Shown: piece after piece, positions 55,401 to 61,329 of the stretch
Layout: each line of letters begins with the position of its first letter
Position numbering within the stretch: the stretch's first letter is position 1
From: Longimicrobiales bacterium
GTDB lineage: Bacteria; Gemmatimonadota; Gemmatimonadetes; Longimicrobiales; Gaopeijiaceae
DNA length: 64,000 nucleotides
Direction of reading: 5' to 3'
Assembly (NCBI GenBank): GCA_965226375.1
Contig: CBDDCX010000008.1
Span: 672,001-736,000 of the forward strand
Position numbers and translations under genes: made by a program
Notes under the pieces: generated by a model
Databases searched by the model: none
Seen by the model: the letters and a program-made list of their open reading frames with translations, nothing else
What the model was told of the DNA's origin: nothing

Positions 55401-56735
55401 ACACAGCGTCGCTCGAAGATCGACGGTGTGGTGTCTCTGGAACGGGTCACGACGGTTATGACGCCGAACGACGAGCTGATCGTAACATCACGCGAGGGGC
55501 AGATCGTGCTCAAGACGGCTGAAGGCCAGATTCGCAGTCGCCTGAGCGTTCCGTACGGTGCGACCCTGGCTGCTGAAGAGGGACAGGTTATCGAGTCCGG
55601 CGACCAGCTCTTCAGCTGGGACCCGTACTCCGAGCCGATCGTGGCCGACTCCGGCGGAGTCGTGAACTTCCTAGACATCGTCGGTGATCAGACCATGCGG
55701 GAAGAGCTCGACGAGTCCACGGGTCGTCGCCAGATGACGATCATTGAAGACAGGAACAAGAAGCTCCACCCAACCATTCAGATCCGGAAAGACACGAAGA
55801 AGGCCGAGAAGCTCCGCGAGTTTATCATCCCCGTGGGAGCCCAGCTTACCGTTCGAGACGGTGAGAAGATCAACCCCGGCGACACGATCGCGAAGATCAG
55901 TCGCGAGGTCTACAAGACCAGGGACATCACCGGTGGCCTTCCCCGTATCGCGGAGCTTTTCGAGGCCCGCCGCCCGAAGGATCCTGCGGTCATCACGGAG
56001 ATCGATGGCACGGTGCGCTTCGGCGACATCAAGCGAGGCAAGCGAGAGGTCATCGTGACGCCTGAGACGGAAGAGGGAGAAGAGAGGGCCTATCCGGTGC
56101 CCGTCGGTAAGCACATGCGGGTGCACGAGGGTGACCGGGTGCGGGCGGGTGACCGTCTGTCCGAGGGTCCGATCAACCCGCATGACATCCTGAAGATCAG
56201 AGGCCCGCGGGCCGTGCAGGAGTACCTGCTCAACGAGATTCAGGAGGTCTACCGACTGCAGGGCGTAAAGATCAACGATAAGCACATCGGTGTGATCGTC
56301 CGGCAGATGCTCCAGAAAGTTCGCATCATCGATCCAGGTGAGACACAGCTGCTCGAGGGAGAGAACGTCGACCGCGTCGAGTTCCGCGAGGTCAACAGCA
56401 AGTCGATCAAGGATGGCAAGAAGCCGGCTCGTTCCGAGCCCTTACTGCTCGGGATCACCAAGGCCAGCCTCACCACCGAGTCGTTCATCTCGGCAGCTTC
56501 CTTCCAGGAGACGACCCGGGTGCTCACGGACGCAGCGGTCCGCGGTGCCAGGGACGACCTGAAGGGACTGAAGGAAAACATCATCATCGGTCACCTCATC
56601 CCGGCCGGTACCGGCATCCATCGTTATCAGGACGTGGAGTTCATGGTCGAGCAGTCGTTCTACGAAGAAGAGATCCTGCCGTTGGCGGATCCGAGTGAGC
56701 TCGTAGCCGGGTTGGAAGAGGTTACTGCGGACTGA
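52440..56735 (+). CDS. rpoC: RNA polymerase beta' subunit
   Basis: [12 protein letters not shown] catalytic motif and Zn fingers. Confidence 0.99.
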
Positions 56736-56737
56736 GT

Positions 56738-56839
56738 AATCGGGGAGAGGCTCGTCGCCTTCCGCTCCGCGCGGACGCTACGCTCTGCGGCGTTGCCGCA
56801 GACCCGCGCTTCGGGAAGGCGACGAGCCTCTCCCCGGTT
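56738..56839. repeat. Long hairpin after rpoC (REP-like element or terminator)
   Basis: CGGGGAGAGGCTCGTCGCCTTCC ... GGAAGGCGACGAGCCTCTCCCCG arms with an inner hairpin. Confidence 0.75.
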
Positions 56840-56931
56840 GACGGCTTGGGGGCGTCGGGCACCTCTACCGAGGTAGTACCGGCGCTCTCTCGGATCTTCC
56901 ACGTTGGCTTTTAGCGGGGGCGTATAGGTCC

Positions 56932-58134
56932 ATGAAGGGGGTCGATCCTGCGATCGATTTTGTTACCGAAGTTCTGGCGGGGCGTGCGCCGTTTGAACTT
57001 GGACCTGCCGGGCCTGATCGGGATCGGACTCTGGAGCTTCTGGCGTTTCATCGCTTGATCGGGCTCTGGTATGCGGAGGCCCGAGGGTCGGCATCCGATG
57101 AGGCCGGATCGTCTGAGCCTGGGGGCGAGGTGGACTCGGAGTGCCGGGCTCGCCTCAAGGACCAGTACCTTCGGACGGGACTCCACTCCACGCTCGTCCT
57201 CGAGTCTGCTCAACGGGCGGGTGCGGCTCTTTCCCGTGAGGGCATCCGCTCCATCGTGTTCAAGGGTGCGGCGCTCCTGCAGAATGGCACCTACGGGCAG
57301 CCGGCGGCGCGCAGCCTGGACGACACCGACCTGCTGATCCCCGAGGCTGCGGCAGGTGCTGCGGTTCGGGCTTTGCAAGCTGTGGGGTTCGAACCTTGGG
57401 TCGAGTGGGATGAAAACCGTATTGGGTGGCTGCCCGCTTTCACGTTCTCCGACGGTCAGGCGCCGAATGGCATGTCGATCAGCCTCGACCTGCACTGGCG
57501 CACCCCCTACACGTCGTTCCGCAGTGGCTCGGATGAGGAACCCGGGACTTTGTGGGAGGGGGCCGACCTCGAGGCGGGGCTGCCGGCCGAGGAGCCGCAC
57601 TTTCTGCTCCTGGTCGAGCACTTTTTGAAGCACCTGCGTGTCGTGGCGCATGTGAGGGCGCTGGGCGATCTGGTCCGGTCGCTGGATCGTATATCGAAGC
57701 CCGAGCTCCTGGCCGGTCTAGCCGATCGGCGTGGGAGCCTGCGTGGGTTGCGGGTCATGCTGGCCTTTCTCAGGGACGGGTTGCGGGTGCGTGTACCGGG
57801 GGAGGTTCTTTCCGCCGCTGGCGTGCCCGGGAAGATGCCTCGAGCGGCTTCGAAGTTGCTGGATCGATCGCGCCTCTTCGGCACGGAGCCGCCCGTGTCG
57901 GGCGGCCGAATCCACGGGCTGTGGCTCCAGTGGGCCTTCGCAGGATCGCCCTCGGTGATGGTACGTGATGCCTACGACGTGGTGTTGCCCCCCGCGTCCT
58001 GGCTGCGACATCGCTATCCGGAGGTCTCGACCGCATGGAGCCGCCGGCGCCTTCACCATATCAAGACCGTCGCGACCTGGCTGATGGGTCGGGGCGTGTC
58101 GCCCCTTTCTCCGAATCAGGAGTTCGAGGAGTGA
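56932..58134 (+). CDS. Nucleotidyltransferase family protein (NTP_transf_5-like)
   Basis: GIRSIVFKGAAL..YG..AARSLDDTDLLI, LDLHW and LGDL motifs. Confidence 0.82.
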   Translation: MKGVDPAIDFVTEVLAGRAPFELGPAGPDRDRTLELLAFHRLIGLWYAEARGSASDEAGSSEPGGEVDSECRARLKDQYLRTGLHSTLVLESAQRAGAALSREGIRSIVFKGAALLQNGTYGQPAARSLDDTDLLIPEAAAGAAVRALQAVGFEPWVEWDENRIGWLPAFTFSDGQAPNGMSISLDLHWRTPYTSFRSGSDEEPGTLWEGADLEAGLPAEEPHFLLLVEHFLKHLRVVAHVRALGDLVRSLDRISKPELLAGLADRRGSLRGLRVMLAFLRDGLRVRVPGEVLSAAGVPGKMPRAASKLLDRSRLFGTEPPVSGGRIHGLWLQWAFAGSPSVMVRDAYDVVLPPASWLRHRYPEVSTAWSRRRLHHIKTVATWLMGRGVSPLSPNQEFEE

Positions 58135-59015
58135 GGGTTCGCTTCTCGTTCGAGGGTGCCGAGACCGAGGTCGTTGTCTCGGATCCCGCGCTCGCTCCCT
58201 CAGTGGCGATGCTGTTCCCGGATGGTCGGGTAGAAGAGTTGGTGGAGTCTGGGCTCGGAGCCACGGTCATGCGTGTGACTGCGGGGCCCGCCGGGTACGA
58301 TTTTTTGTCCCACCAGGGTCGTTCGACGTTCGACTCCGTTCCCGATCTCCTCGCGGCAGTGGAGTTCGCTGTTGTGATGGACCTGCTTGCAAAAGATGGT
58401 CGGGGCACTCATCTGCATGCCGCCGCCGCCGTGACCCCGTACGGTGCCATGTTGGTCTCCGGTCCTTCCGGGGCGGGCAAGTCCAGTTTGGCGTTGGCAT
58501 GGTCCTTGGCGGGTTATCCCCTTCTTGGCGACGACGTGGTTCGCTTGGACGAGAATGGCCTCCTCGGGCCCTTCCCAAGGTTGCTCAAGGTCCGCCCAGA
58601 CCTCGTGACGGAACACGGGCTCGCGCTGGCGGCCACGCCGGCGTGGGACCCGGGGAGCGATGAGGCGTGGTTCGACCCGACGACCGCGGGGGGTTGGGCG
58701 TCCGCCGGTTGTCGCGCAGCGCTGGTCGCCCGCATAGAGTATGGTGCCGGAGATAGAGTGCACATCCGAGAGGAAGAGACAGGTGAGGGGCTACGCCTCC
58801 TTCTGGATGCCGTACAGACCACGGGCTTACGCAGGGAGCAGAGTATGGACCGCATCATCGCTCTGTTGGAGGGTGCACGGGTCTTCGCCGTCCGCTTCGG
58901 ATCGTCTTACGAGGCGGCCCGTGAACTGGCCGAGATGGTCGGGGGGGGTGGGTTGGCCGGGGAGGATGTGGTTCCGCCGGTTCGGGATGATCCCGCGTCT
59001 GGAATCGAACCGTGA
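58131..59015 (+). CDS. HPr kinase-related P-loop kinase
   Basis: HLHAAAAV, Walker A GPSGAGKS, YPLLGDD and PFPR motifs; GTGA overlap with the upstream gene. Confidence 0.82.
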   Translation: MRVRFSFEGAETEVVVSDPALAPSVAMLFPDGRVEELVESGLGATVMRVTAGPAGYDFLSHQGRSTFDSVPDLLAAVEFAVVMDLLAKDGRGTHLHAAAAVTPYGAMLVSGPSGAGKSSLALAWSLAGYPLLGDDVVRLDENGLLGPFPRLLKVRPDLVTEHGLALAATPAWDPGSDEAWFDPTTAGGWASAGCRAALVARIEYGAGDRVHIREEETGEGLRLLLDAVQTTGLRREQSMDRIIALLEGARVFAVRFGSSYEAARELAEMVGGGGLAGEDVVPPVRDDPASGIEP

Positions 59016-59302
59016 CGGAGTCCGCCGTCCCCCTCGAGGCCGATCACCCCAGAGCGAGGGAAGACGCTGTCTTCCGATCGCTCGGGAGGGAGTGGGTCAT
59101 CTACGATCCCCGTACCCGGCTCCTGCATGTGCTCAATACGACAGCTGCTCTGGTATGGTCTTTCTGCGACGGCACGAGGTCCCCGGAAGAGATTGCCCAT
59201 GAGCTGACCGGCGTGCTGACCGACCTCCCCTCCGAGAATCTCGTGGTCGACCAAGTGCGCGAAGCGCTCAACGGGTTCCGCGAGCAGGGGTTGCTCGTTT
59301 GA
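59012..59302 (+). CDS. PqqD-family / RiPP recognition element (RRE) protein
   Basis: VIYDP...LHVLNTTAALVWSFCDG.RS.EEI...DQVREAL..F...GLL; 96 aa. Confidence 0.88.
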   Translation: MTESAVPLEADHPRAREDAVFRSLGREWVIYDPRTRLLHVLNTTAALVWSFCDGTRSPEEIAHELTGVLTDLPSENLVVDQVREALNGFREQGLLV

Positions 59303-60255
59303 GCGTGCTCTACTACGCGGGCCTGCTGGGTTACTCGAATCGTATCGATGCGTTTCAGGGGGCGATCCAGGAGGGCGTGCGCCCCGGTGACCGGGTTCTC
59401 GATGTCAGGACCGGGCTCGGGACTTTCGCCTTTTTCGCCGCTCGGTCCGGGGCGCGCTCCGTGGCCGCCGTCGATTCGAGCCCCGTCGTTCACCTGGCGG
59501 AGGCCCTCGCTGCCGCCAACGGCCTGGCCGACCAAATGGAGTTCGTAAGGGGATCATTGCCCCAGGTCTCCCTCGAGGGCGAGTTCGACGTCATCATCTT
59601 CGAGGACTTTCCGACTCCGTTTCTCGATCGGCCCACCTTCGCACTGCTCGAGACCCTTCAGGAGGAGCATCTCTCCCACGGTGGACGGATGATCCCCCGC
59701 TCCGCCCGCATGCACCTGGCTCCCGTTCAGTCACGGTCCGTCCACGACGCGACCTTTCCGCTGGACGAGTTGGACCTCGATCGTTTCGACCTCGACTGGA
59801 GTGGCGTTCGACCGTTCCTGGCCAACACACCTCGGCGCGTAGACCTGAGACCCGAAGACATTCAGGGTGAGGCGGTGTGCGGAGCTCCGATGCCTTTGGA
59901 CCCCGTACCGATGGCGGCGGCGCTTCGAGTAGAGGGAAGCTGGAGCGCGGGGGAGCCGGGAGTCGTACATGGGCTGGCGCTGTGGTTCGATCTCGAGGTC
60001 CACGAAGGGGGTTGGATCTCCAATGCGCCAAAGGCGGAGCCGGAGCCCTGGGGGCAGTGGCTTCTGCCTGTCGATCCGCTGCTCGAGGTCGCCGCCGGCC
60101 AGACGCTTTATGCGTCGGTCTGGCGCGAGGCTCTGGAGGATGGCGGTCCCGGGTGGTTGGCATGGGAGTGCCGCGTGGAAGATGACATTCGAACGGGGCA
60201 CGAATTTGCGGGTAGGTTGGCAGGACCGGAGGATCTGGCGGGCTCCGGATCGTGA
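59299..60255 (+). CDS. SAM-dependent methyltransferase with PRMT-like architecture
   Basis: R..AF..AI...VRPGDRVLDVxTGLG..AFFAARSGA..V.AVD, FDVIIFE, L..GGRMIP, VHGLALWFD and WGQW motifs. Confidence 0.78.
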   Translation: MSVLYYAGLLGYSNRIDAFQGAIQEGVRPGDRVLDVRTGLGTFAFFAARSGARSVAAVDSSPVVHLAEALAAANGLADQMEFVRGSLPQVSLEGEFDVIIFEDFPTPFLDRPTFALLETLQEEHLSHGGRMIPRSARMHLAPVQSRSVHDATFPLDELDLDRFDLDWSGVRPFLANTPRRVDLRPEDIQGEAVCGAPMPLDPVPMAAALRVEGSWSAGEPGVVHGLALWFDLEVHEGGWISNAPKAEPEPWGQWLLPVDPLLEVAAGQTLYASVWREALEDGGPGWLAWECRVEDDIRTGHEFAGRLAGPEDLAGSGS

Positions 60256-60417
60256 GTTCGGCAGTCCGGCTGGATTTGCGATACCAAAGGCGCTGTCGAC
60301 TACGAAGTCACAGGAGTTGACATTCCATCGAGCGTTCGTAGACCTTTGTAGAGTAGGTGTGTCTGTGTTGGCCAATCACTCATTGGTGCACGCTTGAACC
60401 CCGCAAGGAGAGAGGCC

Positions 60418-60645
60418 GTGGAAGACAGACGCAATTTCTTGCTCAAAGTGGCCACGGGCGTTGCTTACTCTGCGCCGGTGATCCGGACGCTCGCATCGCC
60501 GCCCGCCCTCCTCGCCCAGGGGGGTGAGAGTGAAACGACCCAGAAAGGGGGCCAGGGCATGGAGATGGGCATGCTGGTCATTCAGAGCCCGGAGCCGCCG
60601 ACGACGACCAGTACCGCTCCCTGGGCCAAGAAGCCCGGAGGGTGA
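60418..60645 (+). CDS. Putative RiPP precursor peptide (75 aa)
   Basis: AAGGAG/GAGG RBS before GTG; DRRNFLLK and YSAPVI in the leader; Ser/Thr/Gly/Pro-rich C-terminal part; follows the RRE cassette. Confidence 0.7.
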   Translation: MEDRRNFLLKVATGVAYSAPVIRTLASPPALLAQGGESETTQKGGQGMEMGMLVIQSPEPPTTTSTAPWAKKPGG

Positions 60646-60802
60646 GACCCCACGAACGCCGTTCTGGAGCCCACGGGTAACAGCCCCTTCGCCGGCTCGC
60701 CCACAGGCTTCAGCCACCCTCCCTTCTTCTCCCGAACACCTGCAGCCCGCCCTACCCCATAAACCCTCCGGCTGAAGCGGGTTTTCAGGGTGCCCGACCC
60801 CG

Positions 60803-60831
60803 TTGACACCCCCTAGGGCCTCTTTTAACTT
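60803..60831 (+). promoter_or_regulatory. sigma70 promoter of the str operon, TTGACA-17-TAACTT
   Basis: Perfect -35 and 17-bp spacer. Confidence 0.7.
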
Positions 60832-60896
60832 TCCAAGTCTTTCCCGGAGATGCGCCGAAGCGTCGGTGACTCCGGCTCCGAAACCGCGCTAGAACC

Positions 60897-60935
60897 CGCG
60901 CCTTGAGGGTGCGTCATGAGGCGCGTTTTTTTTTT
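60897..60935 (+). terminator. Intrinsic-terminator-like hairpin + T tract in the rpsL leader
   Basis: CGCGCCT...AGGCGCG followed by a run of 10 T. Confidence 0.55.
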
Positions 60936-60957
60936 GACGACATGAACCTGGGCTGAC

Positions 60958-61329
60958 ATGCCTACGATCAACCAACTCGTTCGCAAGGGACGTCGCGAGC
61001 TTCAGAAGAAGAACAAGTCCCCTGCATTGCAGAAGAACCCTCAGAAGAGAGGGGTCTGCACCCGTGTGTATACCACCACTCCCAAGAAGCCGAATTCGGC
61101 TCTTCGGAAGGTGGCCAGGGTGCGGCTGACCAACGGGTATGAAGTGACGTCATACATCGGGGGCGAAGGACACAACCTCCAGGAGCACTCGATCGTGCTC
61201 ATTCGAGGTGGCCGGGTGAAGGACTTGCCTGGCGTGCGATACCATGTCGTCCGGGGAACCCTGGACGCATCCGGTGTCAGCGATCGGCGCCAGGGTCGGT
61301 CCAAGTACGGCGCCAAGAGACCTAAGTAG
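60958..61329 (+). CDS. rpsL: 30S ribosomal protein S12
   Basis: [10 protein letters not shown] and [10 protein letters not shown] motifs. Confidence 0.99.

Follow-up and report, generated by a model that had tools for sequence, protein, structure and literature searches.

A conserved small precursor gene whose leader is most likely both an enzyme docking site and an export signal

The small gene at 60418–60645 on the forward strand of the window (the whole 64,000-nt stretch of DNA analysed here) is real and conserved. It encodes a precursor peptide of 75 aa, made up of a 33-aa leader and a predicted 42-aa core, and the leader is most likely an enzyme docking site and an ordinary export signal in one. 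The reading that we favour, with a probability of about 0.62, is that the locus makes a linear, phosphorylated and methylated peptide that would be exported by Tat and released by the housekeeping signal peptidase I. The nearest known system is not that of the lasso peptides; it is that of the linear polyphosphorylated peptides (LPP), described in 2026 for the lppA-K-B-S-D-N clusters of Bacillota (PMC13381572). The peptide gene is the last of a five-gene cassette in the order nucleotidyltransferase, HPrK-like kinase, PqqD-type RRE, PRMT-fold methyltransferase and peptide, in which the four enzyme genes are joined by overlaps of 4 bases.

The translation of the ORF is exactly that given in a preliminary description of this DNA, and the composition reported there for the 42-aa core is correct (3 Ser and 6 Thr, 3 Met, 3 Lys, no Arg). 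A Shine–Dalgarno sequence, AAGGAG/GAGG, precedes the GTG start. Searches with phmmer returned 12 homologues, and profile searches returned 51 and 109; four of the 109 were left out as long proteins that are probably chance matches or fusions. After long, fragmentary and near-identical sequences had been excluded, 133 homologues were aligned and 132 could be placed in register. The ORF's conservation, on which the preliminary description had made its proposal depend, is seen in more than 130 homologues and lies at the protein level, as each leader Arg position in 47 precursors draws on all six Arg codons. The pattern RRxF[LIVM]-x8-YxxP occurs three times when the genome is read in six frames (6.9 million residues); the two occurrences besides this one are no genes for small peptides, and no second copy of the leader was found there. 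The window peptide belongs to no Pfam or NCBIfam family; its ESM Atlas matches, all below 0.9, include some in TAT_signal clusters and serve as leads only. Eighteen of 301 genomes of the class carry the peptide (one unpublished genome, G029, is counted in this tally), and these 18 include every one of the 15 genomes whose RRE match is below E 1e-26. In G169 and G298, two genomes whose RRE is fairly close, the stretch examined shows no precursor; in one of them it ends at a contig end. A weak search of 8000 candidates gave no longer proteins with this leader, and a metagenome scan gave only three short loci. At L071:7171–7704, two precursor genes with different cores stand in tandem.

The TTGACA at 60317 had suggested that the peptide has its own promoter. 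The hexamer is present at 60317–60322, and the putative promoter that it would begin (TTGACA, 18 nt, GACCTT; 60317–60346, +) recurs as TTGAC, 18–19 bases and CTT in five of the six aligned upstream regions of the nearest relatives, and also at L048. It resembles the site before rpsL, TTGACA-17-TAACTT at 60803–60831; a sigma-70 consensus scan called no promoter in 56500–61100 and also misses the rpsL site. Of 46 other rows, about 28 have the peptide start, placed by a heuristic choice, overlapping the methyltransferase stop, so a separate promoter would be restricted to the sub-clade of the window. One metatranscriptome held a 205-nt contig identical to 60398–60602 and no contig over the four enzyme genes. 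Such contigs give neither expression ranking nor strand and may stem from DNA carry-over, and we take this one as a weak hint that the peptide region is transcribed. The view that the ORF is untranslated, or that its motifs arose by chance, is almost certainly wrong: it can point to an RNA record of one short contig, but it would have to account for a large set of homologues conserved as protein and for the roughly 28 loci in which the peptide start overlaps the preceding gene.

In the alignment of 132 homologues, the twin-arginine motif DRRNFLLK (residues 3–10; 60424–60447, +) is conserved at 99% and 98% for the two Arg, 94% for Phe and 91% for Leu. The rest of the leader keeps a fixed register when counted from RR, with Y in 96% at +13, P in 99% at +16, I/V/M/L at +18, P in 96% at +24, L/A/V at +27, A/G in 95% at +29 and Q in 75% at +30. 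Among the 47 precursors that were found via the methyltransferase, RR is present in 46, RRxF[LIVM] in 44, and Y and P in all 47. DRRNFLLK had been described as close to the Tat consensus; RRxFL is indeed kept, but the Lys stands at +6 from the first Arg and not at the consensus +5. The family as a whole conforms to the class I Tat n-region S/T-R-R-x-F-L-K, with Asp at −1 in 54%, and Asp at this position also occurs in some predicted Tat substrates of this genome.

By sequence, an AxA-like signal peptidase I site follows about 30 residues after RR (30 residues exactly from RR to the cut in 99 of 115), and about 30 residues is the usual length of a Tat signal (PMC6708511). In the window peptide the site is P28-x-x-L31-x-A33↓Q34 (60499–60519, +; arrow, predicted cut). 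The motif P..[LAV].[AG]Q is present in 88 of the 132 homologues, and a looser fixed-register form in 123. When we looked for the same motif in other proteins of the genome, 20 of 125 that are secreted-like had it and 0 of 131 that are cytoplasmic-like; the shorter [LAV].[AG]Q occurred in 54 of 125 and 4 of 131. ALLA-Q, which the preliminary description took for a signal peptidase I site, thus matches the signature of the genome's own secreted proteins and is a predicted site of this kind.

The h-region is weaker than in our Tat controls, which were 41 predicted substrates of the genome (nine of 50 candidates had been dropped as non-signal or duplicate); these controls, like the 125 secreted-like ones, are motif-based predictions. 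An uncharged stretch of at least 13 residues, an approximate criterion, is found in 80 of 132 homologues and 36 of 41 controls, and the stretch in the window peptide is 12 residues long. Median hydrophobicity is 1.40 in the homologues and 1.61 in the controls, and on an h-region profile the family has a median score of 0.2 (the window peptide −4.5), between the Tat controls at 8.7 and internal RRxF sites at −13.3. TIGR01409, run on an alignment of 49 sequences, reached only E 0.035 for the best member, and TIGR02811 (formate dehydrogenase region TAT target) stayed below its curated cut-off; a Nitrospinota precursor (L123) clears the TIGR01409 Tat cut-off with 24.3 against 16.7 bits. A weak h-region would be expected if an RRE site is embedded in it, which is an argument and not an observation. 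The genome encodes TatC and two signal peptidase I enzymes, and TatC was present in all 15 carriers tested (one partial). Two Tat reviews describe short, unstructured, hydrophilic cargo as tolerated by Tat, and in one Tat review a short hydrophobic stretch can hinder transport of unfolded cargo; the core contains such a stretch, MLVI, which is a point against Tat.

We also considered that the RRxFL helix serves for enzyme docking, or is a substrate of the methyltransferase, with the modified peptide remaining cytoplasmic or at the inner membrane. This is suggested by the weak h-region, with Y, P and often R within it, by the sub-threshold scores of the Tat models, and by the fact that the PRMT-fold enzyme is the most constant neighbour of a precursor in which the leader pair are the only invariant Arg. 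We regard it as unlikely. It leaves unexplained why P-x-x-[LAV]-x-[AG]↓Q, the mark of secreted proteins here, is kept in a fixed register; related methyltransferases serve lasso precursors without RR, and the RR leader is also found at three loci that have no methyltransferase (L040, L131 and L132).

The other function of the leader is predicted from YSAPVI (Y17-x-x-P20-x-I22; 60466–60483, +), in which position +5 from the Tyr is always I/V/M/L among the 132 homologues. The preliminary description had identified it as a YxxP motif recognised by RREs, and the fixed register bears this out, with binding assigned by homology. Discrete RREs recognise [Y/W]xxPx[L/V/I/A/F/Y] (PMC13381572), and YxxP is absent from all 41 predicted Tat substrates of the genome. 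The cassette encodes a discrete PqqD-family RiPP recognition element (59012–59302, +; PF05402, 38 bits, above cut-off), whose profile has LppB (9x8z) and TfuB1 (6jx3) as best solved relatives. In LppB, an Asn and an Asp fix the leader Pro and Tyr (PMC13381572); the LppB-type Asn is kept in 39 of 39 RREs and the Asp in at least 90%, and the window RRE has Gln81 in place of this Asp. A predicted complex of the RRE with residues 1–45 of P0002, a peptide one residue off that of the window, had a score of 0.58, the best of three controls reaching 0.00, and was graded weak, with 95% agreement of contacts and a partner pLDDT of at least 62. The mark for this score is reached by 116 of 157 solved pairs and 2 of 215 mismatched pairs, and 18 of the solved and both of the mismatched pairs pass it with a score of 0.60 or less. 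The score may be explicable by likeness to solved RRE–leader complexes.

The first gene of the cassette encodes an NTP_transf_5 nucleotidyltransferase (56932–58134, +; PF14907, E 4e-20) and the second an HPrK-like kinase of 294 aa (58131–59015, +), which matches TIGR04352 at E 3e-7, far below the cut-off; the curated cut-offs of TIGR04352/04353 (HPr-rel-A system) are missed. The kinase start is likely the GTG that overlaps the transferase stop and not the ATG at 58035, and the 294-aa form is the one on record. The cassette lies at the rpoC–rpsL junction (window 56735–60958); L026 shares the order methyltransferase–peptide–rpsL, and the other loci are placed elsewhere. A second HPrK-like kinase and a second NTP_transf_5 protein are encoded in a polysaccharide locus of the same genome (G000:C8:485604–486776 and 497363–498721), where no RRE or precursor was found.

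The fourth gene (59299–60255, +) encodes a methyltransferase with the fold of eukaryotic PRMTs. Its nearest counterparts in both sequence and predicted fold are CARM1 and PRMT6 (phmmer, CARM1, E 7e-18; AlphaFold pLDDT 86; Foldseek TM 0.78 to CARM1). The double-Glu loop and the THW loop are catalytic features of PRMTs. In 46 sequences inspected by eye, the first Glu of the double-Glu loop is present in all 46, an acid (Asp/Glu) at the second position in 23 and the His of THW in none; this is a PRMT-fold enzyme with a changed active site. The window enzyme itself reads DVRTG in SAM motif I (G37R), where the other 79 sequences compared have Gly. The change stems from A/G at window position 59407 (codon 37); two of five cluster members have it, runs X4 and X8 carry Gly and run X3 Arg, and it is probably a real natural polymorphism. 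The window methyltransferase may be impaired, and the allele possibly inactivating, because the change falls in the SAM-binding motif. This change, like Gln81 of the window RRE, counts against the favoured reading. In 37 of the 46 Gemmatimonadota-type methyltransferases (e.g. L033:6806–7972), a C-terminal extension of ~80 aa, absent from the window enzyme, weakly resembles the helical half of the RRE (hhalign 67%).

In the core, every one of the 132 homologues has a Ser/Thr no more than 9 residues from the cut, and 96 have [ST]x?[KH], consistent with polyphosphorylation of the LPP type, modification here being assigned by analogy. In the window peptide the predicted phosphoacceptor region and candidate methyl acceptor are S38/T40/T41-x-K43 (60529–60546, +). 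The kinase of the LPP system, LppK, rejected Thr (PMC13381572), so the phosphoacceptor of the window peptide may be S38. Methylation of the Lys or His after the phosphoacceptor (K43 here), and not of a core Arg, is a tentative choice that we hold at somewhat below even odds; a Lys beside the phosphoacceptor is favoured because many related lasso-type cores end in K-T. Thirteen of 47 cores contain no Arg, and three contain neither Arg nor Lys, a point against Lys as the universal acceptor. Toward the C-terminus, STAPWAKKP (60610–60636, +) is invariant or nearly so in the 12 close homologues, and PW is present in 103 of 132 homologues and 25 of the 47 methyltransferase-found precursors. Across homologues the core is of low complexity (Gly 18%, Pro 16%, and Ser, Ala and Met ~8% each). 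The preliminary description had expected RRxFL and YxxP to be conserved and the core to vary; the first part is borne out, but the core is not wholly variable, as Ser/Thr near the cut and the C-terminal PW are kept.

Since the homologues had been collected by leader similarity, we ran the search in reverse and fetched 80 loci by the methyltransferase alone (the best 80 of 238). Among these, the 46 loci of the Gemmatimonadota type (45 labelled Gemmatimonadota and one without label) contain the peptide in 46, the RRE in 46, the kinase in 43 and the transferase in 28, and none of the 46 has B2, cyclase or ABC exporter within 6 kb. The other 34, from Acidobacteriota, Chloroflexota, Deinococcota, Nitrospinota and others, contain a cyclase in 25, B2 in 18 and an ABC exporter in 14, and in 21 of the 25 cyclase loci we recognised lasso-type precursors without RR by eye; some loci end at contig ends. 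With the LepB of the genome as query, no LepB-like peptidase was detected in 96 loci, a search that a distant archaeal-type enzyme could escape; 92 neighbours scanned include no member of the S24/S26 peptidase families, and the window cassette has no peptidase gene. The statement in the preliminary description that the cluster has neither peptidase nor transporter therefore holds for all 46 RR-type loci, whereas the lasso-type relatives have both. The contrast between the two types indicates that RR occurs where peptidase and pump are missing. Outside Gemmatimonadota, cyclase-free loci with RR...[YF]xxP precursors number three: L087 (Poribacteria), L099, and L123 (Nitrospinota). In a methyltransferase tree built by a quick method, with L114 left out as too short, the Gemmatimonadota sequences form one clade (support 94) that is sister to L087/L099, with Nitrospinota apart. 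As the Gemmatimonadota form one clade, the contrast rests on about two RR-type lineages and not on 46 independent cases.

These neighbourhoods also bear on whether the gene encodes a lasso precursor matured by a cyclase and B2 encoded elsewhere. The YxxPxI motif and the related tailoring enzymes present in lasso clusters speak for such a precursor, but we found no B2 in the genome of the window, where cyclase-like matches are limited to one weak match and a piece of Asn synthase that is fused to an SGNH-like stretch. A B2 gene is found elsewhere in the genome in four of 15 carriers and is absent in 11, and we judge this alternative highly improbable. Lasso precursors have Thr at −2 and Asp/Glu at core positions 7–9; here position −2 is L/A/S/V/M and core 7–9 in the window is T-T-Q, and lasso identity was set aside. 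Fourteen of the lasso clusters, in Acidobacteriota and other phyla, have a PRMT-fold methyltransferase with an SDLRG loop beside the kinase (L085, L091, L094, L098, L105, L108, L112, L113, L115, L116, L119, L122, L124 and L125). This enzyme possibly represents an undescribed lasso tailoring step, and many of the cores end in K-T.

Alternatively, the leader might be an export signal and RRE site that uses Sec, or that relies on an ABC exporter and a peptidase whose genes lie elsewhere, RR being a relic. Among 16 other loci, L031 alone has an ABC exporter directly downstream, bufferins go by Sec, and LPP uses its own pump and peptidase. Against this, RR, F and L are kept at 91–99% despite free synonymous change, the h-region, being weaker than in the Tat controls, is too polar for Sec, and an exporter was found in 0 of 46 loci. 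We consider this route decidedly unlikely and retain export by Tat. The proposal that Tat and signal peptidase I replace a dedicated peptidase and transporter is thus supported, at about the probability given above, by the register, the c-region and the gene context, from which it is inferred.

The comparison with LPP shows a common plan with different ends. In LPP, a Tyr lies at −16, Ser3 of the core is polyphosphorylated, and a dedicated peptidase and an ABC pump serve release and export (PMC13381572). Both systems have a discrete RRE together with an HPrK-like kinase and an NTP transferase, with no cyclase, and both have a YxxPx[V/I] leader with the Tyr 16–17 residues before the cut, a Ser/Thr just past it, and cleavage, predicted here, by an enzyme of the type I signal peptidase class. 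The SipW-like peptidase LppS and the MsbA-like ABC pump LppD belong to LPP, whereas the window family has neither, save for the exporter at L031. The LPP leader ends in FET, whereas the window family has RRxFL and a [LAV]x[AG]↓Q site, and instead of the LPP consensus YxxPxVLxHQxIxFETxxS it reads YxxPVIxTLxxPxxLxA↓Q. The family further has an added PRMT-fold methyltransferase, and its hosts are Gemmatimonadota, Nitrospinota and Poribacteria. The main text of the LPP paper has no mention of Tat, a methyltransferase or Gemmatimonadota (PMC13381572). The peptide family would work like LPP but fails three LPP-defining features. Phosphorylated lasso peptides of the paeninodin/Bsf type share the RRE, kinase, NTP transferase and YxxP leader, and the 25 loci of methyltransferase-bearing lasso clusters also have a related PRMT-fold enzyme. 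Unlike lasso precursors, the window family has RR and lacks cyclase, B2 and Thr at −2, and the methyltransferase loop reads FED[FY] in the RR-type family and SDLRG in most lasso loci.

Other systems resemble single parts of the proposed pathway. Bufferins are Sec-exported RiPPs whose signal peptide is removed by signal peptidase; MNIO enzymes heterocyclise their Cys, the signal is dispensable for modification on overexpression, and in the authors' speculation the signal stays masked by an RRE-containing partner until the modification has been completed (PMC11626156, PMC12452194). They share with the window family a RiPP precursor with a general export signal (predicted here), but they use Sec and MNIO and have no YxxP, whereas Tat is proposed here. 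Tat signals with REMP chaperones, such as TorA with TorD, are bound in the h/c-region by a dedicated cytoplasmic protein (PMC6708511). An RRxFL n-region, ~30 residues, a basic residue before the cut and a cytoplasmic binder (inferred here) are common to both; the differences are that the cargo here is a low-complexity peptide of 42 aa, the binder a PqqD-fold RRE and the h-region weaker. With CARM1 and PRMT6, the methyltransferase has in common the Rossmann and beta-barrel fold and the first Glu of the double-Glu pair; it differs in the second acid and the THW His, and the window core has no Arg. The literature searched, which left out most subscription papers, held nothing relevant on a Tat-exported RiPP or a PRMT-like RiPP enzyme.

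In the favoured reading, the discrete RRE would bind Y17-x-x-P20-x-I22 in the cytoplasm, a step for which homology argues strongly. By analogy with LPP, the HPrK-like kinase would (poly)phosphorylate a Ser/Thr just past the cut, most likely T40/T41 or S38, and the nucleotidyltransferase may decorate that phosphate. The PRMT-fold enzyme would add a methyl group, with K43 as best guess. YxxP falls within the stretch that would serve as h-region, and a bound RRE should therefore keep the precursor away from TatBC until modification is done, in the manner of redox-enzyme maturation chaperones on Tat substrates. The released precursor would then pass through Tat and be cut after A33 by the housekeeping signal peptidase I to give a Gly/Pro/Met-rich periplasmic peptide of 42 aa. 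Since the leader doubles as an export signal, the peptide could leave without a dedicated transporter and protease. The leading guess for the function of the mature peptide, a doubtful one, is soft-metal binding or a role in envelope stress.

A wider reading, to which we give a little less than an even chance, is that the RRxFL...YxxP...AQ leader is a general module for modifying first and then exporting by Tat, with the RRE as proofreading chaperone and different enzymes attached in different lineages (kinase, PRMT-fold methyltransferase, tubulin-tyrosine-ligase-like ATP-grasp, SdpB/HTTM-like). Its boldest form, in which the PRMT-fold enzyme methylates the twin arginines and so gates export, is very unlikely. 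If the module reading is true, the family would provide the first RiPP route with export by Tat and, among bacterial PRMT-fold enzymes, the first one whose peptide substrate is defined; RiPP export by a general pathway has been shown for Sec, in bufferins, and we found no Tat example in the literature searched. With a leader that serves as RRE ligand and Tat signal alike, one sequence would couple modification to export; such a leader would also explain a class of RRE–kinase–transferase clusters that look incomplete, and would offer a simple means of engineering the secretion of modified peptides that are bulky and charged. The peptide is also a candidate for the substrate of a bacterial enzyme that combines the eukaryotic arginine methyltransferase fold with a changed active site.

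Several loci differ from the cassette of the window. At L132:6838–8629 (G206), an RR...YxxP precursor adjoins an ATP-grasp protein of the tubulin-tyrosine-ligase family that carries a fused PqqD domain. L040:6028–9107 (G186) comprises an RRE, a kinase, an HTTM/SdpB-like membrane protein, a 237-aa protein and an RR precursor, with no methyltransferase. A second cassette at L131:6823–8395 (G252) has the order RRE, precursor, kinase, and its precursor has RR and YxxP closer together, a cut site that is a perfect AFA↓Q, and two core Cys. An ECF sigma factor gene diverges from the cassette at L029, L033, L034, L036 and L040, and at L033 it is followed by a Spy/CpxP-like heavy-metal-resistance gene. 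The cores of L029, L033, L034 and L036 contain HHH runs.
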